A stretch of DNA of 64,000 nucleotides from Patescibacteria group bacterium (GTDB lineage: Bacteria > Patescibacteriota > JABMPQ01 > JAQVVF01). Each line of letters opens with the position of its first letter. Positions within the stretch are counted from its first letter, which is position 1. Where the stretch lies: contig JBAZSC010000004.1 in the NCBI GenBank assembly GCA_041662665.1, forward strand, positions 10,464 through 74,463. The letters are read 5' to 3'. Below the pieces are notes generated by a model that saw nothing but the letters and a program-made list of their open reading frames with translations, was not told the DNA's origin and did no database searches. Below, piece after piece: positions 2,358 through 40,582 of the stretch. Made by a program: the position numbers and the translations under genes.

Positions 2358-3602
2358 TTAGACTTCAATATATCCTTTTTCCCAATTATCAATAATCATT
2401 TTTTCCATCATTGTTTTACCGCCGACATATTCATAGAAAATCTTATTCCATAATGATTCTTGATGGTGATAAAGATATTTAATCATCTCTTTTCGCTTCG
2501 CCAAACCCATTTCATTATCAATCAAATTAAAACTAATCAGTTCATCATTCAAATCGCCTTTAAAAAAATCTCCGACAAAATTCAAACCTTCCCAAAAAGC
2601 AAATTCTAAACCTTTAAATTTAACATCGAGTTTTGATAATGATTCTTCTGCTTTTGACCAATGAATTGTTTCTGGATTTACATGCGGTTCAAATAACCTG
2701 AAGTCATTTTCATCATCTTTTGCTAAATATCTTTGTACAATTCTAAAAAAACCAAATGGCATTTTTTCACTCAACACATCGCCACGAATTAATGAATCTA
2801 AATTATTTGCAAATTTTCCATCTGTTTTATGTTTTTCAATTAATTTAGAATAAAAAGGAATTTCGTTCAAATAATGCAAAATCAAAGAAAACATTCTCAA
2901 GGTTTCACCTGCAATTCCAGATGAGATTGGAATAATAAAAATTATTCCTAATTCTTTTAAATGGCTTAAATTATGATATTTTTTCTTAATAAATCTTTGG
3001 GCAATTCTTAACCATTTTTCATTTAAAACAATTACTTCGATATCACGATACTCAAAATCTGATGGCTGTAACTTTAGATAAGCTTTACTAAAAACATTAT
3101 TCATCCAATCTCTTGATTCAACAAATCTAAGTGCCGCATATACTTCTCTCCAATCTTCTTTTTCTAACAATAATTCCATACTTTTGTACTTCAAAGCTGA
3201 CAAAATATTCGGCGGCGGATTTTTTAATAAAAATTCTTTTGCCTTGTCTTTTTTTATAAAAAAACCTCGCTTATTATCTGTAATCTCCAATGCTACTTGT
3301 ATTGCTTTAGAACAAGATTCTTTTTTTTCACAAATCGGTTGACCAAGCATTTCAAACAAAGCTCGATCATCTCTTTTTAATTTTAAAATAATTGCTTTAT
3401 GAATAGTCAACGCATGACTATTTTTCGGCAATTTCAAAATTCCAAGCAATTCCTTTATTCGAAAATTATTTTCCGAAACAATTTTATCCAATACTAAAGA
3501 TTTTTTAAACTTTTTTTCCATCAACTCCGCAGTTTTTAAAACAGTAACCTTGTCGGTTCTCAAAATTCTCGCAATTTTTTCCGCTGAAACATAGTTTGCC
3601 AT
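2358..3602 (-). CDS. Hypothetical protein
   Basis: 414-aa ORF with no recognisable motif. Confidence 0.45.
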   Translation of the reverse strand: MANYVSAEKIARILRTDKVTVLKTAELMEKKFKKSLVLDKIVSENNFRIKELLGILKLPKNSHALTIHKAIILKLKRDDRALFEMLGQPICEKKESCSKAIQVALEITDNKRGFFIKKDKAKEFLLKNPPPNILSALKYKSMELLLEKEDWREVYAALRFVESRDWMNNVFSKAYLKLQPSDFEYRDIEVIVLNEKWLRIAQRFIKKKYHNLSHLKELGIIFIIPISSGIAGETLRMFSLILHYLNEIPFYSKLIEKHKTDGKFANNLDSLIRGDVLSEKMPFGFFRIVQRYLAKDDENDFRLFEPHVNPETIHWSKAEESLSKLDVKFKGLEFAFWEGLNFVGDFFKGDLNDELISFNLIDNEMGLAKRKEMIKYLYHHQESLWNKIFYEYVGGKTMMEKMIIDNWEKGYIEV

Positions 3603-5031: not shown

Positions 5032-6048
5032 TTATTTTATTAATGCTCCAGATTTAACAACATGCTCTACTAAAGTAACAGCGTATCCCCATTCATTGTC
5101 ATACCATGCCATAACTTTAACCAAATTTCCGCCAACAACTTTTGTAAATTCTGAATCAACAATACTAGCATGAGAATTCTTAATAATATCATGTGAAACG
5201 ATTGGTTCCGTAGAAAATTCTAATAAATTTTTCCATCGATCTTCTTTGCTCGCATCTTCCAAAATTTTATTTACTTCGGAAACGTTTGTTTCTTTTTTTG
5301 AAATAAATGTCACATCAGCAATAGAGCCACAAACAACCGGAACTCTAACAGCAATGCCATCAAATTTATCTGCCAATTCAGTTATTGCTTCAGTAGTTGC
5401 TTTTGCAGCTCCAGTTGTTGATGGCACCAAATTTTGCCCTGCTGATCTTCCACGTCTCATATCTTTCAAATCAGCTGGACCATCAACCAAGCTTTGAGTT
5501 GCAGTATAAGCATGAGTTGTATTCAACAACGCTTTTTCAATTCCTAATTTTTCATTTAAAATCGCAACAACCGGTGAAATAGCATTTGTTGTACAAGATG
5601 CGTTTGAAGTAATCACATCATCTTTCATTTTTTCTTCATTAACTCCTAATAAAATAGTTGGCACGCCTCCTTTTGCTGGTGCAGAAATTACCACTCTTTT
5701 TGCGCCAACTGTTAAATGCATTTTTGCCTTTTCTTTTTCCGTAAACACGCCAGTACATTCAACACAAACATCAACATTCAATTCTTTCCATGGCAATTTG
5801 CTTGGATCTTTTTCTTGAGAAAAATTAACTTTCTTGCCTTCCACAACTAAATTTCCATCAACAACTTCAACTTTCTTATCATATTTTCCATAGACCGTAT
5901 CATACTTCAAAAGATAAGCTAAATTTTCTAAATCTCCCAAATCATTAATTCCTACAATTTCCATTTCATCTTGCCGATCAAACGCAATTTGAAAAAATTG
6001 TCTGCCGATCCTGCCAAATCCATTGATTGCTACTTTTATTTTGTTCAT
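5032..6048 (-). CDS. gap: Glyceraldehyde-3-phosphate dehydrogenase
   Basis: INGFGRIGR Rossmann motif and the SNASCTTN catalytic Cys signature. Full-length 338 aa. Confidence 0.95.
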   Translation of the reverse strand: MNKIKVAINGFGRIGRQFFQIAFDRQDEMEIVGINDLGDLENLAYLLKYDTVYGKYDKKVEVVDGNLVVEGKKVNFSQEKDPSKLPWKELNVDVCVECTGVFTEKEKAKMHLTVGAKRVVISAPAKGGVPTILLGVNEEKMKDDVITSNASCTTNAISPVVAILNEKLGIEKALLNTTHAYTATQSLVDGPADLKDMRRGRSAGQNLVPSTTGAAKATTEAITELADKFDGIAVRVPVVCGSIADVTFISKKETNVSEVNKILEDASKEDRWKNLLEFSTEPIVSHDIIKNSHASIVDSEFTKVVGGNLVKVMAWYDNEWGYAVTLVEHVVKSGALIK

Positions 6049-6129
6049 AAAAATTCTTTTTTAAATAATAAAAACACCTGCTTCCCCTCCTTATAAAACA
6101 ATTATAACAAATTTTAACAATTCAGCCAA

Positions 6130-6160
6130 ACCAAAAAAGGGCACGTGCCCTTTTCAAAAA
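6130..6160 (-). terminator. Rho-independent terminator for the 6233-8623 gene
   Basis: Hairpin aagggcacgtgccctt flanked by A/T runs. Confidence 0.5.
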
Positions 6161-6232
6161 AGTTATTAGCAAATTATGAGCAAGTTAAAAAAATTGAATA
6201 AATTTTTTTAACAGCAAAAGATTAACGATTCT

Positions 6233-8623
6233 TTATTCAAAAAAGAAATCTTGGCTATCCGATGTTTCTAAATTAGTTGAATTAGATAAGGCATTCTTCT
6301 CAGCAATCACGAATTTAATCTTTTTTAATGTTCTGAAGTAAAATGATGGAGCAAATGGTCTGTTCTTTGTCTTGATATCTAAAGGATTTGGAACAGGATT
6401 TTTAGGTATCTTTACAAGATAATTTCTAATCTTAAATTTCAAAGTATGAGTTGTTTTGTTTTGATAAATTCTGTATGGTCCTCGCCAAATTCCGTCTCTA
6501 TCTTTAATAAATAGTCTTAAATTCTTTTCTTTGATCTTTGTCTTGTTTAATTTAGATTTTGAATATCTAACAGAGACTCTGAAATTAATATGTTTATTAA
6601 CATTTTTCTGATAGGCTCTTTTGACTGTACCAATATTTGATAATAGCTTTAAGTATCCTGGATAGCTGTTTTTCTTTGTAAAACCATTTAGATGTTTCTT
6701 TTTGTTTCTAATTAATTTGATATATAGATCGTTGATTGATTTTTGTTTAGGAAGAAGATAGAAAAGAAGATCTGCATTATCTTGTTGACTTTGATAAGTT
6801 TGGTTTAAAATTACATTTTCTAAATTAAGTTTTTCAATGAAAGGAATAACTGGAGCTTCAGTATTAATAATATATTCTTCAGTTTTTACACTTTCTGAAT
6901 TTCCAACATTATCAACTGAAAAGAATTTTAGAGTTGTTGTTTCAGAAATTTCGATTGGCGAAGAATAGACTAATGATGAAGTAGTTGGTTCTGTGCCATC
7001 AGTTGTGTAATATGTTGTAGCGACGCCAGAATTATCATCAACTGCTGTCAAGGTAACAGATTGAACTGATGTGTAAGTTTCACCAATTGGAGAAGCAGTG
7101 GTTATTGGTGCTACTGTATCAATAACATAAATCTCTGTTTTCACAGCTTCTAAATTACCAATGGCATTTTCTGAAAAGAATTTTAAGGTTGTATTCGTTA
7201 AAATATCAATCGGACTAGAATATGTTGGTGAAGCTTCTGTTGGGTCTGAACCATCTGTTGTATAGTATGTTGTTGCTGTCTTATTTGGAGTCAAAGTAAT
7301 TGATTGAGCGCTATTGTATGTATCACCTACTGGAGAGGCAGTTGTAACTGGAATATCACTATCCAATACATCGACAATTGTTTGGGCAATTTCCGTATAC
7401 CCTGCTACATTTTCGTGTACTCCATCACCAGAATCATATATGGCCTGTATATCCCAGTAATTACCAGCGTCTCCACCAACTCTAAATTGCCCGATATGTG
7501 GTTTGCTGTCAACTACTATGGCGGACGAGTACGAAGTGGCTATCAGATTTACAAGGTGTGTTTCCCAATCACTTCTTATCTGCCAGTTAGCATTCGACCT
7601 TGCAGTGAATGGTGTCGATAGCAGAACTACAGGTATAATATTATTAGTTACACAGGCATCAAGCATTGAAGTCCAATTGGCAAGAAAGATTGCCTCGGCC
7701 CCTTCTGCACTTGTGTCATCATTTGCGCTGGCTTCTATTATTGCCATCCTGGGGTGTAAATTAACCACATCATTCGTAAATCTTGCAGCAATTTGGGTAG
7801 ATGTTTGACTTCCAATACCCATATTCTGATATGTTGCAGAATGCAAAAGAGAGAATTGGTAACTAATAGAACTACTAAGTGAATATGTCGTACTGTTTTC
7901 AATAAACGAATAGTTTGCTGGATGTCCAGCCACAATAGAATCTCCAATATATACTATTTGAGGAGCTTGCATATAAACTTTGACAGGAAGTATTGAAGTG
8001 TATGGAGATTGTGCCGACCAATTATAATTAGTCGCACTAGGAGTCGCATCGTAAGCAAAATAGGCTGAGTTAGCCGCTTGACCAATTAATACATTCCATT
8101 GGTTACTACCTGCTCCACTAATAACTATTCCACATGCGATATAGTCTCCCTCTTGCACTGTCCAGGTAGTAGAGGGTGTAATATTTTTAGTCGCAGGTAA
8201 ACCAGTTAATTGGGCTAATACGTCTTCTTGATAAATTCTATCAAAAGTTGCGCCATTCTTACGCCATATCTGTATATAATAATTAGTTATATTAGTAACA
8301 TTATTTACGTGAATAGACAAATGGTCTATGACTCCATTTTGTCTAATACGCGACCTGTTATTATTAAGTAACCGATATCCGCTTGTATGTAATGACCCAT
8401 CGACACCCGAGTTGCCACCAACAGTTAATATTGCATCATAGCCACCAGCTTCAACAATATTCGAATTTGGAGCCATATCCCATGCATATGTAGAAGTAGG
8501 TACAAGCAAAATAAGTATCGGGATTAACAAGACCGCAAGTAAAATTAAAAAAGAGTTAAAAATTTTTACTTTTCCATTAAGCCCCCCCCCTCGTACTTTT
8601 TTGTTTATATTTAAATTATCCAT
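6233..8623 (-). CDS. Secreted SGNH/GDSL-family hydrolase with two chitobiase/hexosaminidase-C-like (YYTTDG...) beta modules and a lysine-rich C-terminal domain
   Basis: N-terminal TM/signal peptide. SGNH block I VYIGDSIVAG and block V DSGDGVHEN. Two tandem copies of about 85 aa (TTYYTTDGSDPT...LKFFS). Basic C-terminal 200 aa resembling the C-termini of the 22030-33614 paralog family. Confidence 0.65.
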   Translation of the reverse strand: MDNLNINKKVRGGGLNGKVKIFNSFLILLAVLLIPILILLVPTSTYAWDMAPNSNIVEAGGYDAILTVGGNSGVDGSLHTSGYRLLNNNRSRIRQNGVIDHLSIHVNNVTNITNYYIQIWRKNGATFDRIYQEDVLAQLTGLPATKNITPSTTWTVQEGDYIACGIVISGAGSNQWNVLIGQAANSAYFAYDATPSATNYNWSAQSPYTSILPVKVYMQAPQIVYIGDSIVAGHPANYSFIENSTTYSLSSSISYQFSLLHSATYQNMGIGSQTSTQIAARFTNDVVNLHPRMAIIEASANDDTSAEGAEAIFLANWTSMLDACVTNNIIPVVLLSTPFTARSNANWQIRSDWETHLVNLIATSYSSAIVVDSKPHIGQFRVGGDAGNYWDIQAIYDSGDGVHENVAGYTEIAQTIVDVLDSDIPVTTASPVGDTYNSAQSITLTPNKTATTYYTTDGSDPTEASPTYSSPIDILTNTTLKFFSENAIGNLEAVKTEIYVIDTVAPITTASPIGETYTSVQSVTLTAVDDNSGVATTYYTTDGTEPTTSSLVYSSPIEISETTTLKFFSVDNVGNSESVKTEEYIINTEAPVIPFIEKLNLENVILNQTYQSQQDNADLLFYLLPKQKSINDLYIKLIRNKKKHLNGFTKKNSYPGYLKLLSNIGTVKRAYQKNVNKHINFRVSVRYSKSKLNKTKIKEKNLRLFIKDRDGIWRGPYRIYQNKTTHTLKFKIRNYLVKIPKNPVPNPLDIKTKNRPFAPSFYFRTLKKIKFVIAEKNALSNSTNLETSDSQDFFFE

Positions 8624-8725
8624 TTTGTTTTAATTAATTTGTATTTTTAATTCTAAAAAATACAAAACAACTCACAGAGTTTTATCAAAATTATTATAGC
8701 ACAAAATATTATTTTCTAAAAATCA

Positions 8726-9010
8726 TCACACAAAAAACTTATCCACATCTATTTTATTTTTCTTAATTTCAATTCCTTCTTGTCTTAACAATTTTATTTT
8801 CTTTTTTAATCCTTTATTATATCCTCCAACAAAACCATCACTTCTTATCACTCTATGACATGGCACTTCTTTATTAAAATTTTTATTCAAAATATTACCA
8901 ACAGCACGATAAGCTCTAGGTTTATTTATCTTCTTTGCAATTTTTTTATAAGTAATAATTTTACCTTTTGGAATTTGCTTACAAATTTTATAAACTTCTT
9001 CTTTAAACAT
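8726..9010 (-). CDS. MGMT-family (methylated-DNA-protein-cysteine methyltransferase) DNA-binding domain protein, stand-alone C-terminal domain
   Basis: 94 aa with the PCHRVI active-site Cys motif and a helix-turn-helix region. Confidence 0.6.
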   Translation of the reverse strand: MFKEEVYKICKQIPKGKIITYKKIAKKINKPRAYRAVGNILNKNFNKEVPCHRVIRSDGFVGGYNKGLKKKIKLLRQEGIEIKKNKIDVDKFFV

Positions 9011-9083
9011 AAATTTATTATATCAAAAAAGCCTACTAAAATTGAAGTAGACTTTTTTTAAATTTTTAAAAATGATATTTAAA

Positions 9084-9155
9084 TACCGCCTAGGGGAATC
9101 GAACCCCTGTTGTCAGGATGAAAACCTGATGTCCTAGCCACTAGACGAAGGCGGC
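9084..9155 (-). tRNA. tRNA-Glu (anticodon UUC)
   Basis: The reverse complement, GCCGCCTTCGTCTAGTGGCTAGGACATCAGGTTTTCATCCTGACAACAGGGGTTCGATTCCCCTAGGCGGTA, folds as a cloverleaf with a TTC anticodon and a GGTTCGATTCC T-arm. It resembles bacterial tRNA-Glu. Confidence 0.8.
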
Positions 9156-9223
9156 ACAATTATTCTATATACACAGAATAATACTAAAATTACTTAAAGT
9201 CAATACTCAAACAATATATTATT

Positions 9224-9255: not shown

Positions 9256-10782
9256 ATGAAAATAAAAACAACAATTTTAATTTTGTTATGTTTTCTTTTT
9301 ACTCCTTTTTTAACATTAGCGGAAGGCTCATCTGCCATATCCTACAGTTTTACTTGGCCATTAGATAAATGGATCTTTGACATGGAAGGTCAAAAATTTG
9401 GCACTATCAGAGGATCTGGGATTTATCATCTTGGCGATGATATTGGAATACAAGCAAACTCACCAGTTTATGCAATTGCCACAGGAGTTGTAAAAAATAT
9501 TGGCGTTTATACTGATTTCGGCACTGTTATTTTAATTGAACACACATTAGCAAATCAAGAAAAAATTGTTTCATTATATGGTCATCTTGGACGAGACACT
9601 CAAGTTGAAAAAGGACAATTTGTTAATAAAAATCAAATTATTGGTTATATCGGTACTACAGATGTTAATGGAGGCTGGCCAGAACATCTTCATTTCGGAA
9701 TCAGAAAAGGCGCCTATGTTACAAATTGGGTCTATTGGGGCTTAGGGTCAAAGGACAAATTAAATGATTGGCATAATCCAACTGATTTTTTATGGTACAA
9801 AATTAATAATCCAGATGTTAATTCTGGAAAAATTGTAACCTCCCCAAATTATCCTGGACGATCACACATTAGAATTTTTGACGAACAAGGTCTTGCCATT
9901 CCAACTTTTGATTTCTTCGCTTACCCTCCAAAGAACAAACAAGGATCTCAAATTTCTCTTGGCGATATCAATAATGATCAAAAACAAGAATTAATAATTA
10001 GCTCAAATAGTTATAAACCACAAATAAAAATTTTTAACAAAAATTCACAAGACTTTATTGCCAAATTCAAACCATTCTCCAAAAAATATAATGGCCAAAT
10101 TAATCTTGCAACGACAGATTTAAATTTAGACGGTCAAGATGAAATTATTGCCACATCTAGTTCAAATCAATATCCAAAAATAAAAATATTTTCTTTATCC
10201 GCCGAAGTCCCGCAGGACGAAGGCGGACTATACAAAACAACAAACACTTTTATAGAATTAACAAAAATTCCAAGTCCATTTAGCCATAAAATAAAATGCG
10301 GAATTAATTTAACAACTATTGATCTAAATAATGATGGCAAGAAAGAGATTCTCGCTACACCAGCCAATAATAAAAAATCAGTTTTAAAATATTGGGACGG
10401 CACAACTTGGCAAATTTTAAAATCCAGGATTTTCAAAAAAACTACCGCAAAATTAACAACTGGCGATATTGATGCAGATGGCAATGAAGAAATAATTGCT
10501 GGCTCACAATCAAATACAAGATCAGTCATCAAAATTATTAATAAAAATGGACACATCAGAAAGAAAAAAATTAAACCATTTGCCAGATATAATCAAGACG
10601 GAATAAATATTTCAACAGTTGATTACAATAATGATGGCATTACTGAAATAATTACTTCAATTGCCAAAAATGGCTCGCCTAGAATTAAAGTTTTTCAATA
10701 TCCTCAAAATATTGCCATTGCCAATTTTTTAGCCTATAATGAAAATTTCACTGGTGGTGTAAATATAGTGGGAATAAAATAA
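9256..10782 (+). CDS. Secreted M23-family metallopeptidase fused to FG-GAP/VCBS-like repeats
   Basis: Signal peptide. M23 motifs HLGDDIG (HxxxD) and EHLHFGI (HxH). At least five DxNxDGxxE repeats (DINNDQKQE, DLNLDGQDE, DLNNDGKKE, DIDADGNEE, DYNNDGITE). Confidence 0.8.
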   Translation: MKIKTTILILLCFLFTPFLTLAEGSSAISYSFTWPLDKWIFDMEGQKFGTIRGSGIYHLGDDIGIQANSPVYAIATGVVKNIGVYTDFGTVILIEHTLANQEKIVSLYGHLGRDTQVEKGQFVNKNQIIGYIGTTDVNGGWPEHLHFGIRKGAYVTNWVYWGLGSKDKLNDWHNPTDFLWYKINNPDVNSGKIVTSPNYPGRSHIRIFDEQGLAIPTFDFFAYPPKNKQGSQISLGDINNDQKQELIISSNSYKPQIKIFNKNSQDFIAKFKPFSKKYNGQINLATTDLNLDGQDEIIATSSSNQYPKIKIFSLSAEVPQDEGGLYKTTNTFIELTKIPSPFSHKIKCGINLTTIDLNNDGKKEILATPANNKKSVLKYWDGTTWQILKSRIFKKTTAKLTTGDIDADGNEEIIAGSQSNTRSVIKIINKNGHIRKKKIKPFARYNQDGINISTVDYNNDGITEIITSIAKNGSPRIKVFQYPQNIAIANFLAYNENFTGGVNIVGIK

Positions 10783-10796
10783 CTGCACTAAAATTA

Positions 10797-10890
10797 CAAA
10801 TCCCAAATTCCAAACAAATTACAAACCACAAATTACAAATCGCTTTTTTGTGATTTGAAATTTGGGATTTGTTTGGAATTTGGAATTTGT
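10797..10890. repeat. Long imperfect inverted repeat of the caaattccaaa / tttggaattg oligo-repeat family
   Basis: The left arm (caaatcccaaattccaaacaaattacaaacc...) is the reverse complement of the right arm (...atttgggatttgtttggaatttggaatttg) around a ttttttg loop. Confidence 0.7.
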
Positions 10891-10904
10891 TATTTAAGAC
10901 ACGT

Positions 10905-11978
10905 ATGTTAATTTTAGGTATCGACACATCCTGCGACGACACATCAGCCGCCATAGTCAAAGACGGCTCTTTTGTTTTATCAAATATTGTTTCTTCTCAA
11001 ACAGAAATCCATAGACAATTCGGCGGAGTTGTTCCAGAAGTTGCAGCAAGATCTCACATTGAATTAATCATTCCTGTTATTAAACAAGCTTTGCAAGAAG
11101 CAAATATAAAAAAAGAAGAATTAGATTTAATTGCCGTCACCAATGGTCCAGGTCTAATTACATCTTTAATGGTCGGCATTGATACTGCCAAGTCATTAGC
11201 CTATTCTTTAAATAAAAAAATCATCGCTATCAATCACATCGAAGGCCATATTTACTCCAACTGGCTCGTTCAAAAAAATAATTTCCGAATTTCCGAATTT
11301 CCCCTGTCCGCCGAAGCCAAACAAAGTGAGGCGAAGGCGGAGAATTTCCAATTTCCAATATTATGTTTAATAGTTAGTGGTGGTCACACTGAATTAATTT
11401 ACATGAAAGATCATCTAAATTACAACGTCATCGGCCAAACCAGAGACGATGCTGCTGGCGAAGCCTTTGATAAAGTCGCTAAATTATTAGATATCGGCTA
11501 TCCAGGCGGACCAATTATTTCCAAATTAGCAGAATCTGGAGATGATCAAGCTTACAATTTTTCTCGGCCAATGATTAATTCTAAAGATTTTGATTTTAGT
11601 TTTTCTGGATTAAAAACAGAAGTCTTAAGATTAACAAAAGAAAATAATATTTTTTCAAAACAACAAATTAACGATATTTGCGCTTCCTTCCAAAAAGCAG
11701 TTGTTGATACTTTAATTTTTAAGACAATAAATGCCGCCAAAAAATATAATGTCAAAACAATTATGTTGGGTGGCGGAGTTTCTGCAAACAAATCTTTACG
11801 AAAAAACCTTGAACAAAAAATCCAACAAGAGATCCCAGACTCTCACTTCTCAATTCTCAATTCCCAATTCTCAAGCGATAATGGAGCGATGATCGCTAGC
11901 ACAGCCTATCAATACGCTAAAAATAACAAGTTTAGCGATTTCTCAAAAATCATTCCAGAAGCAAATCTTTCGCTATAA
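10905..11978 (+). CDS. tsaD: tRNA N6-adenosine threonylcarbamoyltransferase TsaD (Kae1/YgjD family)
   Basis: MLILGIDTSCDDTSAAIV N-terminus and the HIEGH metal-binding motif. The true start is probably the ATG at 10905, since the 12 codons upstream in the ORF track lie inside the inverted repeat. Carries a roughly 25-aa in-frame repeat-derived insert at 11283-11358. Confidence 0.9.
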   Translation: MLILGIDTSCDDTSAAIVKDGSFVLSNIVSSQTEIHRQFGGVVPEVAARSHIELIIPVIKQALQEANIKKEELDLIAVTNGPGLITSLMVGIDTAKSLAYSLNKKIIAINHIEGHIYSNWLVQKNNFRISEFPLSAEAKQSEAKAENFQFPILCLIVSGGHTELIYMKDHLNYNVIGQTRDDAAGEAFDKVAKLLDIGYPGGPIISKLAESGDDQAYNFSRPMINSKDFDFSFSGLKTEVLRLTKENNIFSKQQINDICASFQKAVVDTLIFKTINAAKKYNVKTIMLGGGVSANKSLRKNLEQKIQQEIPDSHFSILNSQFSSDNGAMIASTAYQYAKNNKFSDFSKIIPEANLSL

Positions 11979-12024: not shown

Positions 12025-12501
12025 CTAACATCGTAGCTGAGAATCACAAAGTACATCATCATCAACAACATAATTTTCCAAATCAAATCTCAATTCACCA
12101 GATCTAAAAAGCATCAACACAAAATTAACAATTGCATTATTATGACAATTGTCCGTCAAAAAAATCCGCCGATAACTACCATCAGAATCATAATAGAAAT
12201 AGATATCTGGACTGAAATCACTAATTTCTGCAAGTGTTACTTCCTTTAGATCATCTCTTTGCACATAGCCACCTAGACAATGCTCATCATTAAAAGAATA
12301 TTTTTTCATCTCCACAACAAAATACCTTATTTTTGCAACACTATGATCATATCTTGAAATTGGCTTGATGATCAAAGCTCTTAGACTTTGTTCGATCAAC
12401 ATTGCCGGTTCCTCCTCTTGTAAAAGGGCATCTTTTCTGATAGAATTAATCTCGAAATCGGTAAAACAATTTATTTTAGTACTAAATTCATAAAATGTCA
12501 A
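12025..12501 (-). CDS. Hypothetical protein
   Basis: 158-aa ORF with no recognisable motif. Confidence 0.4.
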   Translation of the reverse strand: MTFYEFSTKINCFTDFEINSIRKDALLQEEEPAMLIEQSLRALIIKPISRYDHSVAKIRYFVVEMKKYSFNDEHCLGGYVQRDDLKEVTLAEISDFSPDIYFYYDSDGSYRRIFLTDNCHNNAIVNFVLMLFRSGELRFDLENYVVDDDVLCDSQLRC

Positions 12502-15044
12502 GTCTTTCCAAAAAATATAATATTTTAGAACAAGAACAAAAATGGCAGAATTTTTGGGATCAAAACAATATTTATAAGTTCAATTCTAGCTCAAAAAAGC
12601 CAATTTTCTCAGTTGACACTCCTCCGCCTTATGCTTCAGCAGCTCATCTTCATGTCGGCCATGCCATGTCTTATACTCAAGCCGAATTTATCATCCGTTT
12701 CAAAAGAATGCAAGGTTTTAATGTTTTTTATCCCATGGGTTTTGATGACAATGGCTTACCAACTGAAAGATATGTTGAACAAAAATACAAAATTGCTGAT
12801 AAATCAAAAATTTCTCGCGAAGAATTTATTCAATTATGTTTAAAAGAAACCAAAGAAGTTGCCAAAACTTATACTTCTCTTTGGAAATCTTTAGGCCTTT
12901 CAATTGACTGGTCTTTATTATACTCAACAATCAGCGAATCATCTCGTCGTATTTCTCAAAAATCATTTTTAGATTTATACAAAAAAGGCTTATTAGAACA
13001 TCGCGAAGAGCCAACAATTTGGTGTCCGCACGACCAAACAGCATTAGCTCAAGCAGATCTTGAAGATGCCGAAGAAAAATCTACACTAAACTATATATCG
13101 TTCGAACTTAAACACTCAAACACTGAAACACCGGAACACTCTGACGATCCGACGCTCCGACGTTCTGACGCTCTCATTATCGCCACTTCCAGACCAGAAT
13201 TATTACCTGCATGTGTAGCTCTCTATGTCAATCCAGACGATGTCCGTTACAAAAACTTAATAAACAAAACTGCCATTGTTCCATTGTTTAATTATGAAAT
13301 CAAAATAAAATCCGACCCCACTGTTGATCCAAAATTTGGGACTGGCTTAATGATGGTTTGTACTTGGGGCGACTCCGAAGATGTTGCCAAATGGAAAAAA
13401 GACAAACTAGACACTAGATTAATTTTTGATAAATCTGGCCATCTTAATGAATGGGCAAAAACTTATCAAGGCTTAGATATAAAAACAGCTCGCACAAAAA
13501 TTTTAGAAGATTTACAAAAACAAAATCTTTTAGTCAAACAAGAAGATATTACTCATGTTTTAAATGTTCATGAACGTTGTAAAACTCCTGTTGAATTTTA
13601 TTTAACTAAACAATGGTTCATTAAAATTTTAGACAATTTAGAGGATTTTAAAAAACAAGGAAACAAAATAAATTGGTTTCCGCTCTTCATGAAAAAGAAA
13701 TATGACACCTGGCTAGATGGCTTAAAATGGGATTGGAATATTTCAAGAGAGCGCTATTATGGCGTCCCATTTCCAGTTTGGTATTGCAAAAAATGTCATG
13801 AAATAATTTTACCTGACGAAAAAGATTTGCCAATTGATCCATTACAAGATCAACCAAAACATCCTTGCCCAAAATGCCAATCGGAAGAATTTGTTCCAGA
13901 AAAAGATGTAATGGACACATGGATGACATCATCATTGACTCCACAAATTAATTCTCATTGGCAAGAACAAGATGAAAACAAAAAACTTTATCCAATGTCT
14001 TTACGGATTCAAGCTTTTGAAATTATCAGAACTTGGCTTTTTTATACAGTTGTAAAATCTTGGTACCATGAAAAAAAATTACCATGGCAGGATGTTATGA
14101 TTTCAGGCCATGGCTTGGATGAACAAGGCCGAAAGATTTCTAAATCATTAGGCAATTATGAACCAGTTGCTAATATAATTAAACGCTATGGTTCTGATGC
14201 TCTGCGTTATTGGTCAGCTGGATCAAATTTAGGAAATAATTTGAGATATAAAGAAGAAGAAGTCAAAGATGGCAAAAAATTAATCACCAAATTATTCAAC
14301 GCTTCAAAATTTAGCTTAATGTTTTTGCAATCCGTCAATCCGTCCGACTTTAAGAACTTTATGAACTTTAAAAACTTTCAACTTCAACCTCTTGATCAAT
14401 GGATATTAAGTAAACTTCAAACAACAATTAAAAACGTTACTGAACATTTTAACACGTACGAGTATTCAAAAGCCAAAAAAGAAGTTTACAACTTTTTCTG
14501 GAAAAATTTTGCTGATAATTATATTGAGCTTGCAAAATCAAGACTTTACAATGATGAAAACAAAGTAGCTAAAACATCAGCTCAAGCAACATTATATATT
14601 TGTTTAATAAATATTTTAAAAATGTTCGCGCCAATCTTGCCTCACATCACTGAAGAGATTTGGCAAGCGTTGCGAGAATTAAACAACGAAACAAAAAAAC
14701 AAGAAAACAGTCCAACTATCGAACAATCAATTCATATTAGTGCTTGGCCAAAAGTTGATAAAAAATTAGTTAACGAAAAGCAAGAAAAACTTGGTGATCA
14801 GATTGTCGAAATTTTAGCCGAAGTCCGAAAAACAAAATCGAATACTAATCTTGCAATGAATAAAGAAATCAAAGAAATAATTATTGATTCTAAAGAAAAA
14901 GATTTAGAAAAATTCTTTCCAGATCTAGCCAATGCCACACATGCCGAACAAATTTCATTTGGCACTGGCGATCTTCACCCTACGAGTGACCACCCGAAGG
15001 GTGGGAAAATTTCTGAAAATCTTAAAATAAAAATTGTTTTGTAG
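12495..15044 (+). CDS. valS: Valyl-tRNA synthetase (class I aaRS; Val assignment from the PPPYAS...HVGHA motif)
   Basis: HIGH region PPPYASAAHLHVGHA and KMSKS region KISKSLGN; 849 aa. Contains in-frame repeat-derived inserts at 13137-13176, 14332-14386 and 14962-15003. Confidence 0.75.
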   Translation: MSSLSKKYNILEQEQKWQNFWDQNNIYKFNSSSKKPIFSVDTPPPYASAAHLHVGHAMSYTQAEFIIRFKRMQGFNVFYPMGFDDNGLPTERYVEQKYKIADKSKISREEFIQLCLKETKEVAKTYTSLWKSLGLSIDWSLLYSTISESSRRISQKSFLDLYKKGLLEHREEPTIWCPHDQTALAQADLEDAEEKSTLNYISFELKHSNTETPEHSDDPTLRRSDALIIATSRPELLPACVALYVNPDDVRYKNLINKTAIVPLFNYEIKIKSDPTVDPKFGTGLMMVCTWGDSEDVAKWKKDKLDTRLIFDKSGHLNEWAKTYQGLDIKTARTKILEDLQKQNLLVKQEDITHVLNVHERCKTPVEFYLTKQWFIKILDNLEDFKKQGNKINWFPLFMKKKYDTWLDGLKWDWNISRERYYGVPFPVWYCKKCHEIILPDEKDLPIDPLQDQPKHPCPKCQSEEFVPEKDVMDTWMTSSLTPQINSHWQEQDENKKLYPMSLRIQAFEIIRTWLFYTVVKSWYHEKKLPWQDVMISGHGLDEQGRKISKSLGNYEPVANIIKRYGSDALRYWSAGSNLGNNLRYKEEEVKDGKKLITKLFNASKFSLMFLQSVNPSDFKNFMNFKNFQLQPLDQWILSKLQTTIKNVTEHFNTYEYSKAKKEVYNFFWKNFADNYIELAKSRLYNDENKVAKTSAQATLYICLINILKMFAPILPHITEEIWQALRELNNETKKQENSPTIEQSIHISAWPKVDKKLVNEKQEKLGDQIVEILAEVRKTKSNTNLAMNKEIKEIIIDSKEKDLEKFFPDLANATHAEQISFGTGDLHPTSDHPKGGKISENLKIKIVL

Positions 15045-20355: not shown

Positions 20356-20452
20356 ATCTCAAATTCCAAACAAATACCAAATCACAATACACAAAGATTT
20401 TTGGAATTTGGAATTTGGAATTTGTTTGGGATTTGGAATTTGGGATTTTAAT
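20344..20452. repeat. Long inverted repeat, caaattccaaa family
   Basis: tacaaatctcaaattccaaacaaatacc... pairs with ...ttggaatttggaatttggaatttgtttgggatttggaatttggg. Confidence 0.7.
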
Positions 20453-20564: not shown

Positions 20565-21023
20565 TTGCTAGTTACTAGTTACTTCAAAATGGAAATTATT
20601 TCTAAATCATCGCAACAAACACAAGATATCGCTCACAAACTTGCTCAACAATTAAATGGTGGCGAAATTTTATGTTTCTCTGGTGAATTAGGTGCCGGAA
20701 AGACCACTTTTATTCAAGGCCTAGCCAAAGGATTAGAAATCAAAGAAAATCTAACTAGCCCAACTTTTGTCATCTTCAAAAAATATCCTGCCAAAAACAA
20801 TCTCGAATTTTATCATTTTGATTTATACAGAATTCATGATCCACAAGAAATTTTAGATTTGGGCTATACCGAAATCATTAATAACAAAAAAAATATATCA
20901 GCAATAGAATGGTCAGAAAAAATTAAGGATCAAATTCCACTCAAAAATGTAATTCATATTAACTTAGAATATCTCGACAAAGATCAAAGAAAAATAATAA
21001 TCAACGAGAATAATGAATTATGA
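20565..21023 (+). CDS. tsaE: tRNA threonylcarbamoyladenosine biosynthesis ATPase TsaE
   Basis: GELGAGKTT P-loop and SPTF motif; about 150 aa. An alternative start at 20589 is possible. Confidence 0.8.
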   Translation: MLVTSYFKMEIISKSSQQTQDIAHKLAQQLNGGEILCFSGELGAGKTTFIQGLAKGLEIKENLTSPTFVIFKKYPAKNNLEFYHFDLYRIHDPQEILDLGYTEIINNKKNISAIEWSEKIKDQIPLKNVIHINLEYLDKDQRKIIINENNEL

Positions 21024-21166: not shown

Positions 21167-21862
21167 ATGATTTATCTTTGGTACATTTTTGTCGCCTTAT
21201 TGCCAGGTTTATTCTGGCTCTGGTTTTATCGTCGAAAAGACAGACAAAATCCAGAACCATTAAAACAAATTTTCAAAATCTTTGTTTGGGGCATGGCTGC
21301 AACAATTCCTGCTATTGCTTTGGAATTCTCCGCTGATTTTTTTATTCCTTATGCTTCGTCAACAAAATATTTAGCCATGGTTTTAAGCTCATTTTTAATC
21401 GTCGCTCCGATTGAAGAATTTTTTAAATATTTAGTTTTAAAGCACAAAGCAGCAGAAAGCAAAGAATTCAACGAACCAATTGATGGAATTATTTATGGCA
21501 TTGTTGTTGGCTTAGGCTTTGCGACATTAGAAAACTTTTTGGTAACTTTAAGCGATGGCGGAACAGTTATTATTTTACGCTTTGCAACTGCTACTTTAAT
21601 GCATGCGATTTGTTCTGGTATCGTTGGTTATTATCTTGCTCGTCAAAAATTCCATCCTCAAGGCAACAAATCAAGCGTCATGAAAGGACTTTTCCTTGCC
21701 ATTTTTTTGCATGGCTTATACAATTCCGTCGCCTCTTACAATTCATCATATTCAATCATTTTGCTCGCTATTTTAATCATTGTCATGTATCTGATGCTTT
21801 CTCAAGATATTAAAGCCATAAAAAGATTAAAAATTACTGCTCAACAAAATAATCAAGAATAA
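21167..21862 (+). CDS. PrsW-family intramembrane metalloprotease
   Basis: Multi-TM protein with the EEFFKYL (EExxK), FATATLMH and HGLYN motifs of the PrsW family. Confidence 0.65.
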   Translation: MIYLWYIFVALLPGLFWLWFYRRKDRQNPEPLKQIFKIFVWGMAATIPAIALEFSADFFIPYASSTKYLAMVLSSFLIVAPIEEFFKYLVLKHKAAESKEFNEPIDGIIYGIVVGLGFATLENFLVTLSDGGTVIILRFATATLMHAICSGIVGYYLARQKFHPQGNKSSVMKGLFLAIFLHGLYNSVASYNSSYSIILLAILIIVMYLMLSQDIKAIKRLKITAQQNNQE

Positions 21863-21947
21863 TTCATTAGTACACCATTCGCAAACACTTGTCCACCGAA
21901 GTCCCGCAGGACGCAGGTGGATTCGAAAATTAATTAGAGTGTACAAC

Positions 21948-22029: not shown

Positions 22030-24078
22030 TTATCTACCTATGGCATAATATCTTTCTGAAAAATCAAATGGAGAATTCAAATAAATCGTAAAAGTATTTT
22101 CTTTGTTATTTTGTCTGGCGTCTAAATCAGACCATTCTCTTAGTTCAACATCATATAATTTTAAATGCAAGTCGCTTTCTTTTAAGCCAGTCATTTTCTT
22201 TTTTAAAACTTTAAATTCTTTTTTAGTATAATAAAAAATCACTTTAATTTTAAAGCTATCAGACAATTGATTTAAATCAGTTGTTATCAACCAATTTTTT
22301 TTCAACAACATATTTTCTGCATTAACATAAGTTATTGGATATTTTTTAAATCTTTGCACTTGCCAATAATAATTATATTTTTTAAGACTCTTAGAATATT
22401 TCTTAAAAACAAAATCAAAATCATTAGCAAAATAATTATGGTTTTTTCCTTTAATCTTGACTGTTTTATCGTTTGCTTTCTTAGTTACAAATTTAGCTTT
22501 TTTAATTACATACTTTTTACTGACAACAGAAGATTGATTGCCAGCATTATCAATTGCCATAAATTTCAAAGTCATGTCTTTGGAAACAACAATTTTCTTG
22601 CTGTAAACATCGGAAGTTGTTTTTGGCTTCTTGCCATTAGTTGTATAATAAATTTTATCCACGCCAGAAAGAGCATCAGTTGCTGACAAAGCAACTTTTT
22701 TAATATTTTTATAAGTGCCTTTTTTTACTGATGCCAAAACTTCTGGAGCTGTCGCATCATAAACAATGCTGGCTGACACTGCTGCTGTTTCTGCATACCA
22801 AGTATCTCGAAATTTTGCATAAACAGTTTTTGTCCCCTCGCTAGCTGATAAAGTAAAAGACTGCGAAGTTCCATATGTCGTCCATGCTGATCCAAAAGAA
22901 CTGCTGTTTTCTGTTGTTGCCATTTCTAATGTATCGCTTGAAGAAGACAAACCAAGCGTTAAACTTGAAGAATTAGTGTAAGTTGCTCCAGAATTAATTA
23001 TTAATGCTGCTAAAGACGGACCAGGAGTATAGGTATAAACCAAACCAGTAGCAATATCATAATTACACACTTGCGACCGATTATTAGAATCAACATCAAT
23101 AGAAGTATAATAGCCAGAACTAGAAGCACCTATAGTATATGTCGCCCAAGAGCCAGACACATTAGTCGCATATTTCAAACCATTGCCAGAATAAGTAATT
23201 CTAACTTTATCATTAGAATCAATTGCCAAAGAATTATTTGATCCCACAGTGCCAGAACTGTCTAAAATTTGTACTGTCCCCCAAAAGCTGGGCCTACCAG
23301 TAATATACTTCAAATCATAACTTACATTATCAAAATAACAAATATGAACATTATCGCCGGAATCAACGCCAAGATCCATATGCGTAGAAGTATAGTCACC
23401 CATATCAACATCATCCAAAGTTTCTCTCACCCAACTCCCAGAAGAATTTGTTACAAATCGCAGATGATTATTAGTATCATCATAATAACTTATCTGCGGA
23501 TAGTTATTGGAATCTAACTCAATTGCTGTATATTTTCCCATATCAGTACTTGTATCATCAACCACTTCTGTGCTCCAAGAACCATAATGGCCTTTGGCAT
23601 ATTTCAAATCTTGTCCTGTTGAATAATAATAAGAAATATGCGCTTCGCTGTCAGATCCAACCGCAATTGAAGTGTACCTGCCTACAACACCAGTTGCATC
23701 TACCTGTTCCGTCTGCCATGATCCAGAAACATTAGTTGCATATTTCAAAGAAGTATTATCTGTATCATAATAACTGATATGCGCTTTATTATTAGAATCC
23801 AATGCTAATGAAGAATATCTACCAACATCGGGACCGCCAAAACCATCTACTATCTCGCTTGTCCAAGAACCAGTTAAATTATTGACATATACCAAATCTT
23901 CATCACCTATAGCATAATAACAAATATGAATTTTATCATTCGTATCAACTTTTAATTCAGTGTCTGTAATATTTGCTAATATCGTAATTGTACTCGCTGA
24001 CCAGTCAGCCGCTTTTACATTTTGCCCAACAAAAATTACACTAATTAAAATTAAAAATAACCACAAAATTTTTCGCAT
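22030..24078 (-). CDS. Secreted repeat protein, paralog 1 of 6: signal peptide, YATN-type propeller-like repeats, chitobiase-C-like module and lysine-rich C-terminal domain ending YYAIGR
   Basis: Signal peptide MRKILWLFLILISVIFVGQNVKAADW; repeats of about 46 aa (SLALDSNNKAHISYYD.TN..LKYATNVSGSW); a KIYYTTNGKKP...KFMAIDNAGN module; lysine-rich tail. Confidence 0.8.
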   Translation of the reverse strand: MRKILWLFLILISVIFVGQNVKAADWSASTITILANITDTELKVDTNDKIHICYYAIGDEDLVYVNNLTGSWTSEIVDGFGGPDVGRYSSLALDSNNKAHISYYDTDNTSLKYATNVSGSWQTEQVDATGVVGRYTSIAVGSDSEAHISYYYSTGQDLKYAKGHYGSWSTEVVDDTSTDMGKYTAIELDSNNYPQISYYDDTNNHLRFVTNSSGSWVRETLDDVDMGDYTSTHMDLGVDSGDNVHICYFDNVSYDLKYITGRPSFWGTVQILDSSGTVGSNNSLAIDSNDKVRITYSGNGLKYATNVSGSWATYTIGASSSGYYTSIDVDSNNRSQVCNYDIATGLVYTYTPGPSLAALIINSGATYTNSSSLTLGLSSSSDTLEMATTENSSSFGSAWTTYGTSQSFTLSASEGTKTVYAKFRDTWYAETAAVSASIVYDATAPEVLASVKKGTYKNIKKVALSATDALSGVDKIYYTTNGKKPKTTSDVYSKKIVVSKDMTLKFMAIDNAGNQSSVVSKKYVIKKAKFVTKKANDKTVKIKGKNHNYFANDFDFVFKKYSKSLKKYNYYWQVQRFKKYPITYVNAENMLLKKNWLITTDLNQLSDSFKIKVIFYYTKKEFKVLKKKMTGLKESDLHLKLYDVELREWSDLDARQNNKENTFTIYLNSPFDFSERYYAIGR

Positions 24079-24152
24079 ACTTTTTTATTAATTAGTAGTG
24101 ATATTCCTGCCTGATAACAGTCAGGTATAACAAAATTTGCGTAAATTCACAA

Positions 24153-26000
24153 TTATCTTCCGATTGCATAATATCTTTCCGAATAATTAAATGGCGAACT
24201 TAAATAAATCATAAAAGTATTTTTTTTAGTATTCGGCTTGACTTGCAAATCCGCCCATTCTCTTGATTCAGAATTATATAATTTTAGATAAAGATTTTTC
24301 TCTTTCAAACCTTTTACCTTTTTCTTTAAAGCCTTAAATTCTTTATTAGTATAAGAAAATACTAATTTTAATTTTACTGGTTTGCTAGAATTATATTTTT
24401 GATAATCAGTTTTAATTTTCCAATATTTCTTTATCAAATTATGCTTTGCGTCAACAAAAAGTTTCGTATACTTTTTTTGCCTCTCAACCAAAAAATATCT
24501 TTTTGTCTTTTTAAAACTTTTTGGAAATTTTTTGAAAGTCAAATTTAATTCTCTTGCATAATATTTTTTATTTTTTTTCTTGATTTTAACTTCATTCTTT
24601 TTCTTGGATTTTTTTGTTGTAAATTTTGGATTGCCAACATATTTAACAATTTGTGAAACAACATCTGATTCAGCATGCCAAGCATCTCTATATTTTACAT
24701 AAACAGTTTTCTTGCCTTTTTTTGCTGGCATTTTAAATGTCTTATCAGCCAAATAACTTTGCCAAGTTTTGTTTGAAAAATCAGATTTTGTTGACACAAT
24801 CATTTCGACCGGACTTTCAGTCAAAGAAGATGTAATATGAATTTTTCTATAAGCAGAATATTTACGTCCATAATTTATTTCTGTTATTTGATTTGAAGGA
24901 CCAGGAGTATTAGCAAGTTTTAATTTCTCGCTTGTCTGATCATAATATGCGATATAGGCTCTGTTTTTTGAATCCACATCCAAAGATGGATAACCAACAA
25001 CATCGCTGTCATTCAAAGTATTTTTTACAAAAGAATCAGTTACATTGCTCATATAGCCTATCCAATTTCCTCCTCCAACTGTTCCGCCATAATAACTTAA
25101 ACGAACCTTATTATCAGAATCTAAAGCTAAAGAATTATTAAATGCTGTAAAATCAGGCAAGATTTCACTATCCATATCGCTTATCGTCCAATTACTGTCT
25201 GCCGTTGTTTTAGTCGCATATTTAAGCGTCGTATTAGGATTAGCTAAATACAAATAAGCCAAATGTGCTGTATTATTGCTATCAAACTTCAAAGAATTAA
25301 AATAACCAGTTCTATAAGTACTATCAATCGCGCTCAATACCCAACTGCCGGAAACATTAGTCGCATATTTCAAATAATCATTTGTCCCTTCAAAATAAGC
25401 AATATGAACTTTATTATTAGAATCAATAGCCAGAGAATTAAACGTTCCACTATTATCAACCGTATCCAAAGTCTCATAAACCCAATCACCAGTAACATTA
25501 GTCGCATATTTCAAATGATCATTAGTACCATCATAATAAGCAATATGCGCCTTATTATTTGAATCCAAGGCTAAAGACGGATATGAACCAGCTTCAATTG
25601 TCGGATCTAAAATTGTTACTTGCCAAGAACCAGAAGCATTAGTCGCATACCGCAATTGATCTTCAATCATAGCATAATAAGCCAAATAAAAATTATTATT
25701 AGAATCAACTGCCGAAGAAATAAATAATCCTGCATAAAGAGTATCATCAACAGTCTGTTGCTCCCAAGCCCCAGAAGCATTTGTAGCATACTTTATTTTA
25801 TGATCAGTATTATCAAAATAACCAATATAAATCTTATCATTACTGCCAACTTTTAAAGAAACAACAGCCGCACCTTCTGACACCATTGGCACGTTTCCCA
25901 TATCAGCCACATCGCTAAAAACCCAATCAGCAGCCTTAACATTTTGGCCAAAAATAAACAAAGTAAAAACAACAATCAAAATTAACAATCCTTTTTTCAT
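24153..26000 (-). CDS. Secreted repeat protein, paralog 2 of 6
   Basis: Same architecture: signal peptide, 7 repeats, beta module after the TPGPS linker, and a lysine-rich C-terminal domain ending RYYAIGR. Confidence 0.8.
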   Translation of the reverse strand: MKKGLLILIVVFTLFIFGQNVKAADWVFSDVADMGNVPMVSEGAAVVSLKVGSNDKIYIGYFDNTDHKIKYATNASGAWEQQTVDDTLYAGLFISSAVDSNNNFYLAYYAMIEDQLRYATNASGSWQVTILDPTIEAGSYPSLALDSNNKAHIAYYDGTNDHLKYATNVTGDWVYETLDTVDNSGTFNSLAIDSNNKVHIAYFEGTNDYLKYATNVSGSWVLSAIDSTYRTGYFNSLKFDSNNTAHLAYLYLANPNTTLKYATKTTADSNWTISDMDSEILPDFTAFNNSLALDSDNKVRLSYYGGTVGGGNWIGYMSNVTDSFVKNTLNDSDVVGYPSLDVDSKNRAYIAYYDQTSEKLKLANTPGPSNQITEINYGRKYSAYRKIHITSSLTESPVEMIVSTKSDFSNKTWQSYLADKTFKMPAKKGKKTVYVKYRDAWHAESDVVSQIVKYVGNPKFTTKKSKKKNEVKIKKKNKKYYARELNLTFKKFPKSFKKTKRYFLVERQKKYTKLFVDAKHNLIKKYWKIKTDYQKYNSSKPVKLKLVFSYTNKEFKALKKKVKGLKEKNLYLKLYNSESREWADLQVKPNTKKNTFMIYLSSPFNYSERYYAIGR

Positions 26001-26050
26001 TATTTTATTTTAATTAACTTTTAACTTTAGATTTTAGACTTTTAACTCAC

Positions 26051-40570: not shown

Positions 40571-40582
40571 AACAAATTTTAA

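Follow-up and report, generated by a model that had tools for sequence, protein, structure and literature searches.

Palindromic repeats of the RPE-1 type, which Ogata et al. are said to have reported in 2000, reportedly lie in frame in essential or housekeeping genes of a reduced genome, where they are translated within tolerant loops. The repetitive extragenic palindromes (REPs) that carry a CGTC tag, which is often TGTC, are described from five phyla, mostly as inverted dimers; the published account notes G-T pairs in their stems as well as copies inside open reading frames (ORFs) that are translated, several of them in repair genes, and it includes Neisseria dRS3 and Rickettsia conorii RPE-4 and RPE-6 among these elements (Di Nocera et al. 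2013, PMC3733652). In yeast mitochondrial DNA, short GC palindromes (GC clusters) occur in an AT-rich genome, mostly between genes but also in frame in var1, and the GC clusters of Magnusiomyces are bypassed in translation (PMC8811140). Here, we describe a GC-rich hairpin inside tsaD of a Patescibacteria group bacterium, together with the family to which it belongs, in a stretch of 64 kb (contig JBAZSC010000004.1) that we refer to as the window and in whose positions all coordinates of this genome are given. We consider it likely that a REP-like GC hairpin was recently inserted, in frame, into an older tract of short repeats within a tolerant linker of TsaD.

The tsaD coding sequence is intact (10905–11978, plus strand; 357 aa and a stop codon), and its identity is established by a TIGR03723 score of 411 bits against a cut-off of 296 and by matches to TsaD structures in the PDB, including that of T. 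maritima (6nak_B, E = 3e-81). About 21 extra residues lie between the HxxxH helix and the SGGHT strand of the predicted protein. In a pairwise alignment with T. maritima TsaD, a gap of 22 residues falls exactly at this site, flanked by the metal-binding histidine helix (HIEGH, H111/H115) on one side and by the strand ILCLIVSGGHT on the other; the insert peptide, NNFRISEFPLSAEAKQSEAKAENFQFPI, corresponds to residues 124–151.

On the plus strand, the DNA of this region begins with a left short-repeat tract, (AATTTCCG) x2.9 (11280–11302; detected by TRF with 100% matches), which encodes NFRISEFP and represents the older layer of the insert. It is followed by the younger layer, a 39-nt hairpin insertion of 13 codons, L134–E146 (11303–11341), that was delimited by the indel itself, by folding and by a covariance model. 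A right short-repeat tract, (AATTTCC) x2.4 (11342–11359; TRF), overlaps the NFQFP codons that precede ILCLIVSGGHT; of the residues it encodes, F150 is nearly invariant and P151 invariant in an alignment of 28 sequences. The hairpin DNA, CCTG-TCCGCC-GAA-GCC-aaacaaagtga-GGC-GAA-GGCGGA, comprises a 4-nt tag, CCTG (with TGTC at 11305–11308), and a 35-nt palindrome. Its first stem (6 bp) pairs 11307–11312 with 11336–11341, a 3x3 internal loop of GAA and GAA follows (11313–11315 and 11333–11335), and the second stem (3 bp; 11316–11318 paired with 11330–11332) closes an apical loop of 11 nt (11319–11329). As RNA, the hairpin folds with -17.7 kcal/mol (z = -3.8 against shuffles), and as DNA it folds on both strands. 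A covariance model built solely from other copies of the family recovers it with 34.4 bits (E = 1.6e-7 for the window).

The closest TsaD homologues are P0002 (78% identical) and P0003 (77%), both of 336 aa, and P0004 (77%; 347 aa), and the loci of relatives that we compared with the window were L001, which carries P0004, L002 and L004. All three are syntenic with it (M23 peptidase gene, tsaD, a small ORF and valS), except that in L001 additional genes separate the small ORF from valS. The insert is missing altogether from P0002 and P0003, and P0004 carries NIRISEFPNFQFP, which is the short-repeat part without the hairpin; likewise, the left tract is present in L001/P0004 and absent from L002 and L004. 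Compared with each of the three loci, the hairpin is a clean 39-nt indel, and this DNA comparison revealed no target-site duplication. Two GAATTTCC octamers that are adjacent in L001 are separated by the hairpin in the window.

Since L001 has the repeat tract but no hairpin, and since the hairpin interrupts that tract as a clean indel, the tsaD insert is the product of two nested events of different age rather than one composite element. An earlier note on this DNA had described the insert as an in-frame, repeat-derived interruption of tsaD, and both properties are borne out; the comparison with related genomes that it proposed showed no homologous insert, P0002 and P0003 being without everything and P0004 without the hairpin, an outcome that favors its reading. 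The same note had spoken of a composite repeat, but the insert does not constitute a single element. It had also equated the flanking words with those of the intergenic inverted repeats; they are of the same class but not identical, the inverted repeat between the M23 gene and tsaD containing CAAATTCC and ACAAATTA.

The flanking tract appears to have grown locally by slippage, rather than having been imported, as it overlaps the NFQFP codons and as pure expansions are seen in other lineages. The conserved NFQFP codons, AAT TTC CAA TTT CCA, amount to two AATTTCC units, and the pure expansions at this tract include NFQFPISNFQYP and, in L030, (AATTCCC)2(AATTTCC)2. We propose that this cryptic tandem 7-mer, AATTTCC AATTTCC A, would expand by replication slippage into (AATTTCC[G])n, and that in-frame expansions would survive owing to their location in a flexible linker that joins the two enzyme halves. 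Window-wide, GAATTTCC is mildly enriched (9 matches versus 4.4 expected), its local clustering in tsaD being the striking part, and the exact AATTTCC 7-mer recurs elsewhere, for example at 44242–44274 inside a Wzy-like gene. The 3' part of tsaD contains a further repeat, (TCTCAAT) x4.9 (11841–11874), which encodes HFSILNSQFS; as this segment has the same length in other TsaDs, and close relatives have a nearly identical peptide, 7-nt periodicity also exists in tsaD without insertion.

The second layer is a 39-nt member of a dispersed, GC-rich palindromic family that probably inserted into the tract, where no target duplication is present. A pattern scan of the window identified six copies of this family, and a covariance model built from 17 distinct copies, the tsaD copy left out, identified eight, all of them on the plus strand. 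Family members have a TGTC or CGTC tag, the TC of which pairs with a 3' GA, followed by a 6-bp stem (TCCRCC/GGYGGA), a G-N-A/G-N-A internal loop, a second stem of 3–4 bp and a loop. The tag is TGTC in tsaD and in most copies, CGTC in the copy at 31695 and TATC in the copies in the M23 gene and in a gene for an AlkD-like protein. Both the apical stem and its loop are variable. The main subfamily has a CGCA loop, the tsaD copy one of 11 nt and a copy next to tRNA-Ser one of 10 nt; these last two copies, together with L006b, make up a subfamily whose apical stems start with GC. The search pattern did not constrain three of the stem positions, and there 51 of 51 cells pair (GC, AU or GU), with nine compensatory changes, six G-U and no A-C, where roughly six A-C mismatches, by our own estimate, would be expected without pairing. 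Over all ten pairs, covariation amounts to 0.240 versus 0.150 in shuffles, a value that was reached by none of 500 shuffles and that exceeds all slid controls.

Two further copies lie within genes: one in the M23 peptidase gene (9256–10782; copy at 10194–10231, 57.4 bits) and one in the AlkD-like DNA alkylation repair gene (62442–63170, PF08713; copy at 62594–62631, 51.4 bits). The copy at 21888–21925 (55.4 bits) is intergenic, about 30 nt past the stop codon of the ORF at 21167–21862 and upstream of a terminator-like hairpin with a T-run. Two copies are located between minus-strand genes, namely the intergenic, antisense copy at 29816–29853 (36 bits, E = 6e-8) and a weak, diverged one with a longer apical stem at 31695–31742 (13.3 bits, E = 0.14). 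The copy at 59200–59239 (26.6 bits) directly follows tRNA-Ser (59111–59199), and that at 63248–63281 (25.8 bits) is intergenic, downstream of the AlkD-like gene, and nested in a longer palindrome. About 40 nt past the copy next to tRNA-Ser(CGA) there is a partial inverted hairpin copy (59277–59299); the two lie between the tRNA gene and a convergent gene for an ABC-ATPase and resemble a tail-to-tail REP pair. The hairpins at 29816 and 31695 occupy spacers of six tandem paralogous genes on the minus strand (22030–33614), which encode proteins of 603–682 aa with internal repeats of about 141 nt (47 aa); the member that was scanned (27952–29802) had no Pfam match.

No family copies were found in the syntenic 20-kb loci of L001, L002 and L004, and the genome of the relative with P0004 has copies elsewhere (L006). 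Furthermore, the 30-nt palindrome of the M23 copy is the same as that of two intergenic copies, L012 and L024, on other contigs of the same metagenome. The simplest reading is that the family spread recently in the lineage of the window; it probably is mobile now or was so until recently, perhaps by a mechanism linked to single-stranded DNA (ssDNA) or to replication, as has been proposed for REPs and for IS200/IS605.

The three coding copies have net lengths that are all multiples of three (39 nt in tsaD, 33 nt in the M23 gene and 21 nt in the AlkD-like gene). The M23 hairpin (10195–10230) is a clean 33-nt in-frame indel that is absent from L001, L002 and L004; none of 13 homologues has the AlkD-like hairpin, which adds a net 7 aa. 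All three are read in a common frame that begins L-S-A/T-E, giving LSAEVPQDEGG in the M23 peptidase, LSAEAKQSEAKAE in TsaD and LSTEVSQDGGGS in the AlkD-like protein; the likeness between the tsaD and M23 hairpins that the earlier note had pointed out thus extends to the kind of element and to the frame. As its length is a multiple of three and its frame is free of stop codons, the tsaD hairpin would simply be translated. Purifying selection has probably acted as a filter, through which coding copies are left only in plus-strand genes and in one acidic, hydrophilic frame.

We therefore consider it very improbable that the hairpin escapes translation, whether by ribosome bypass, as at the byp GC clusters of Magnusiomyces mitochondria and in T4 gene 60, or by excision from the mRNA. 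A stable GC hairpin in an AT-rich coding sequence would suit bypass, for which there is a precedent (PMC8811140), and the identical GAATTTCC words on either side could serve as take-off and landing sites; however, these two words stand in different codon phases, and that three coding copies are multiples of three and free of stop codons in the frame used would be needless if they were skipped. Excision is disfavored by the Rfam scans, which detected no intron or ribozyme family: at gathering thresholds, the window contains two tRNAs only, and a scan of the M23 copy (10170–10260) by E-value returned nothing better than E = 2.5. Several structural candidates were also rejected. A bulge-helix-bulge intron was discarded because the 3-nt loops face each other and are not offset by 4 bp, and an integron attC site because there are no RYYYAAC/GTTRRRY boxes; a solitary CRISPR repeat, a K-turn and an adapter or linker artefact were dismissed on anatomy.

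Among described repeats, the CGTC/TGTC-tagged REPs come closest to the tsaD family: they too are stem-loops of about 30–40 nt with a TGTC (in some cases CGTC) tag at one end, have G-T pairs in the stem, are dispersed, multi-copy and mostly intergenic, and are present in several phyla, with some translated copies inside ORFs. Published elements measure 20–40 bp, have loops of 4–5 nt and occur predominantly as head-to-head dimers; in the tsaD family, the loop of the main subfamily has 4 nt and those of the tsaD and tRNA-Ser copies are longer, and inverted doublets occur beside tandem ones and singletons. The published stems are uninterrupted, have 8–9 bp and start with A-T pairs, and a CCA tail follows, while the stem of the tsaD family is bipartite (6 bp, a 3x3 loop and 3–4 bp) and starts with TCC or CCC, with no conserved 3' tail (CCA) evident, and the host phylum, Patescibacteria, is new. 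Because of this bipartite, non-AT-initiated stem, we provisionally file the tsaD family as a relative or new member of the tagged REPs and not as one of the four published CGTC families. The window also contains sequences that resemble the published CGTC/TGTC REPs themselves, TGTC-ATCCT-GAA-C-CGCA-G-TGA-AGGAT-CC (51478–51506) and a second copy with the stem CCCC/GGGG (51641–51664), which, on either side of an AT-rich spacer, occupy the interval between two minus-strand genes. The REPs at 51478–51506 and in L031 have an AT-started stem and share the inner architecture GAA...CGCA/GC...GA with the tsaD family.

As with the Rickettsia elements, a palindromic repeat is found in frame in ORFs (three in the window) and is absent from the orthologues. 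By description, however, RPE-1 is 100–150 bp long and Rickettsia-specific, while the element studied here has 33–39 nt and is GC-rich in a genome region of 31% GC. The likeness to GC clusters consists in the spread of GC palindromes through an AT-rich genome, with occasional in-frame insertion that creates protein length polymorphism; unlike the present elements, GC clusters are organellar, have AG/TAG terminal repeats that are taken as target duplications, and are of unrelated sequence (PMC8811140). With GTAG REPs (REPIN-RAYT) and IS200/IS605, the tsaD family shares the hairpin as such, the lack of a target duplication, some doublets and an orientation that follows the replication strand, but the terminal GTAG is absent, G(A/T/G)AG being found only inside the internal loop, and the 5' end is YTG(TC). 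The active strand of IS608 is on the G-rich lagging-strand template; in the tsaD family, by contrast, the tagged strand is on the C-rich strand. Literature searches with sequence strings and with the peptide returned only primers, and no paper on REPs in Patescibacteria was found in the library searched; reviews of the candidate phyla radiation (CPR) mention insertions in rRNA genes only.

Metagenomes were scanned for the 28-nt core, which yielded 19 contigs, some of them with 53–69% GC and an intergenic element. In these GC-rich contigs, the 5' flank is again YTG(TC), although it lay outside the search pattern, and one copy precedes a kinase gene by about 31 nt; the named relatives of this gene belong to Vicinamibacterales (Acidobacteriota). 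Copies there are often paired. Doublets are head-to-head in L027 and L010, tail-to-tail in L023 and tandem in L025, and the copies in the window are singletons. A narrower core pattern had only one match in 185,579 species-representative genomes, in a sister metagenome-assembled genome. Neither the 35-nt family consensus in PLSDB plasmids nor a broader core pattern in IMG/VR viral contigs gave any match, so that there is no sign of a plasmid or phage vector.

These contigs also bear on whether the hairpin is an artefact of assembly or sequencing. Palindromes can arise as chimeras, and the contig index did not contain the TsaD of the window itself; we nevertheless regard an artefact as scarcely credible, given that the TsaD protein cluster has both NCBI and JGI members and that family copies, flanking sequence included, are seen again in separate contigs from JGI and in the Logan assembly of another run (L007–L009, L013, L020), of which L007 also covers about 6 kb beyond the right end of the window. 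The preservation of frame in three genes, and the presence of related copies in unrelated metagenomes, point the same way.

That eight of eight copies in the window are on the plus strand is unlikely to be due to chance (two-sided binomial p ~0.008). Two of them lie between minus-strand genes, and copies in other contigs (L012, L016) are likewise antisense to the flanking genes; since such copies are antisense to their neighbors, orientation follows the DNA strand and not the direction of transcription. The proposal that the hairpin is always sense to transcription was rejected on the basis of the copies at 29816 and 31695 and in L012 and L016. The hairpin-sense strand is the C-rich strand in five of six low-GC loci. 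In the window, whose GC content is 31%, the plus strand has a strong and uniform GC skew of about -0.22, regardless of gene orientation, and the skew is negative in all 2-kb bins but one (6001–8000: +0.04). An rnpA-yidC-jag cluster, which is often found near a replication origin, lies at 53.9–56.1 kb, with no switch of skew there. A strand bias of this kind would be expected from an ssDNA- or replication-linked mechanism, and it could also arise if the more stable strand is selected against when it lies on the lagging-strand template.

The TsaD linker has been hit in other lineages as well. In 120 Patescibacteria TsaDs, the HxxxH-to-SGGHT segment spans 26–82 residues (mode 30; 52 in the window), and its extra residues are periodic strings of low complexity or else peptides characteristic of GC palindromes. 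L029, which encodes P0013 (about 60% identical to the TsaD of the window), also carries hairpins in the AATTTCC tract, only a few nucleotides from where the hairpin of the window lies; there are two of them, both minimal (TCCGCC-NNN-GGCGGA) and read in a different frame. Its close relative L030 (P0011) has an empty tract, providing a second empty/filled pair at the TsaD site. Furthermore, L028 has an unrelated palindrome of about 65 nt in the TsaD loop (3389–3456 of that contig), and L031 has a tail-to-tail dimer of textbook TGTC REPs there, in frame (514–590). A second variable site of TsaD follows LKTAVLY (alignment columns 314–400); its inserts, LNLEDRKKNVKLQNSGADFNSAKFHPDFRQ among them, can reach about 50 aa.

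The recurrence of hairpins with TCCGCC/GGCGGA stems at nearly the same nucleotide position in two lineages, the lack of a target-site duplication and the failure to find a transposase in the window could all be accommodated if no mobile element had inserted, that is, if the hairpin were ancestral and had been precisely deleted in relatives, or if gene conversion or template switching had copied it from elsewhere in the genome into a fragile repeat tract. Short-repeat tracts are indeed prone to slippage and breakage. We still judge such an origin to be quite unlikely. An ancestral hairpin would require many independent precise losses (P0002/3, P0004, P0005, P0006, P0008, P0010–12), and the two filled sites are built differently, with one long hairpin in the window and a pair of minimal ones, read in another frame, in L029. 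The identity of the M23 palindrome with the intergenic copies L012 and L024 fits recent copying, by any mechanism. Independent gains at a permissive, possibly preferred, site are more parsimonious than many precise losses.

To locate the insert in the protein, a fold model was made, as the earlier note had suggested. AlphaFold2, with the 28-sequence alignment, gave a mean predicted local distance difference test score (pLDDT) of 88.4 and a predicted template modeling score of 0.86; the only segment with pLDDT <50, residues 126–144, is the insert, whose place relative to the active site is deduced from topology. All columns that are invariant in the alignment are kept, including H111, H115, SGGHT (158–162) and D325/N326. 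The insert is part of the segment that joins helix alpha3 to strand beta6 and in which the chain passes from the N- to the C-terminal half. As this linker starts at the far end of alpha3 and runs into beta6 at the far end of that strand, it would point away from the metal site. In published structures, alpha1/alpha2 form the TsaB interface, alpha4/alpha6 and the beta6-beta7 hairpin form the TsaE interface, neither of which involves the alpha3–beta6 linker, and alpha3 is part of the hinge between the two TsaD domains (PMC6009658); an effect of the insert on domain motion is therefore possible. The window also contains a TsaE gene (20565–21023).

Low model confidence in the insert alone is consistent with a tolerated and possibly neutral loop, and it does not favor the idea that the hairpin is itself selected, either as a cis-element whose RNA structure pauses ribosomes, sets mRNA stability or binds a protein, or as an acidic loop that confers a new property on TsaD, such as modulation of tRNA or TsaE binding. 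Pairing that is kept with G-U but never A-C, which the REP literature reads as a sign of function at the RNA level (PMC3733652), would agree with selection, as would the conservation of the core across phyla, the GC palindromes in the TsaD loop of several lineages and the single frame used by all three coding copies. However, relatives that are 77–78% identical do without the hairpin, and the same element turns up both inside unrelated genes and between genes, oriented either way with respect to its neighbors; moreover, the palindromes that other lineages have in the TsaD loop come from different families and are read in different frames. On balance, a selected element seems unlikely to us.

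Several observations weigh against insertion of a mobile REP-like element as we have described it. The insertion boundaries are ambiguous by 1–3 nt, and at the AlkD site about 12 nt were lost in addition. For REPs, it is unusual that cores are almost identical between distant phyla, a pattern that simple selfish spread does not explain. The strand bias is that of eight copies in one replichore and of a few short contigs, and the argument from a common frame has n = 3. The position of the insert relative to the active site and the interfaces is argued from topology and from the published structural work (PMC6009658), and that the hairpin is translated as a hydrophilic loop in an otherwise intact enzyme is a prediction from the sequence. 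There is also the matter of a mobilizing enzyme. A Pfam scan of 30 ORFs of the window detected no transposase family, and for the syntenic ORFs outside that scan, none appears in the precomputed Pfam annotation of the relatives; RAYT, TnpA and TnpB genes were not found in the window, which is 64 kb of the genome. For the CGTC REPs, too, the published account states that no dedicated transposase is known (PMC3733652).

Short-repeat tracts are present elsewhere in the window. A period-8 tract inside valS (12495–15044, plus strand; tract at 13106–13173) consists of ACTCAAAC, AAACACCG, GACGATCC and TCCGACGC words, is in frame and encodes approximately HSNTETPEHSDDPTLRRSDAL; the ValRS of the window has 849 aa versus 808–830 aa in the three relatives. 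Octamers of the TCCGACGC type also form intergenic arrays at 40583–40643, 41373–41441 and 42465–42557, each followed by AAATAAAAAAGAGCCCA. The tsaD 7-mer recurs as (CAATTTC) x4.7, with 100% identity, in a Wzy_C-like gene (44102–45469, minus strand), where the repeat region (44242–44346) continues with TTTGTAA and TTTTTTTG repeats, all of them coding; the coding strand reads ...ELEIGNWKLEI..., and a similar periodic LEIGNWK peptide fills the TsaD loop of P0009. Long intergenic inverted repeats, at 10788–10898, 20381–20448, 48147–48251 and 55346–55413, have arms of up to 52 nt that are 83% complementary and are built of A/T-rich words of 7–8 nt, such as CAAATTCC and TTTGGAAT. The first of these, between the M23 gene and tsaD, has no counterpart in L002 and L004, in which the two genes overlap by one base.

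Two larger segments also stand out. At 6233–9156, a gene for a 796-aa GDSL-lipase/CHB_HEX_C protein and a tRNA-Glu lie between the GAPDH gene and the M23 gene; since M23 directly follows GAPDH in L001, L002 and L004, this is a lineage-specific gene insertion. The block at 40001–44000 has a higher GC content (0.38–0.39), contains four ORFs of 185–286 aa without a Pfam match, is bracketed by the TCCGACGC arrays and may be foreign or mobile DNA.

More speculatively, the hairpins might represent a Patescibacteria REP lineage that transposes actively and strand-specifically on ssDNA, with slippage-prone AATTTCC tracts among its preferred sites; acting jointly with short-repeat expansion, it would turn certain linkers of core enzymes, such as TsaD alpha3–beta6, into hypervariable insertion hot spots throughout the phylum. 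We hold this wider proposal tentatively and with more doubt than conviction. If it were true, part of the extra sequence in CPR proteins would be exonized selfish DNA, and the presence of a near-identical core in Acidobacteriota would point to horizontal spread or to a host factor that is conserved.

Intragenic insertions of the REP or RPE type are of a known kind; Patescibacteria are a phylum for which our literature search found no earlier description of them. The orthologous empty sites indicate that small GC palindromes have been inserted and retained in essential genes of a streamlined CPR/Patescibacteria genome, and the TsaD linker has been hit repeatedly in different lineages. This provides a simple source for some lineage-specific protein insertions in Patescibacteria, and a caution, for those who annotate genomes or predict structures, that such segments derive from repeats. 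With its strict strand orientation and a core that crosses phyla, the family is a tractable case for determining how tagged REPs without a known transposase move.

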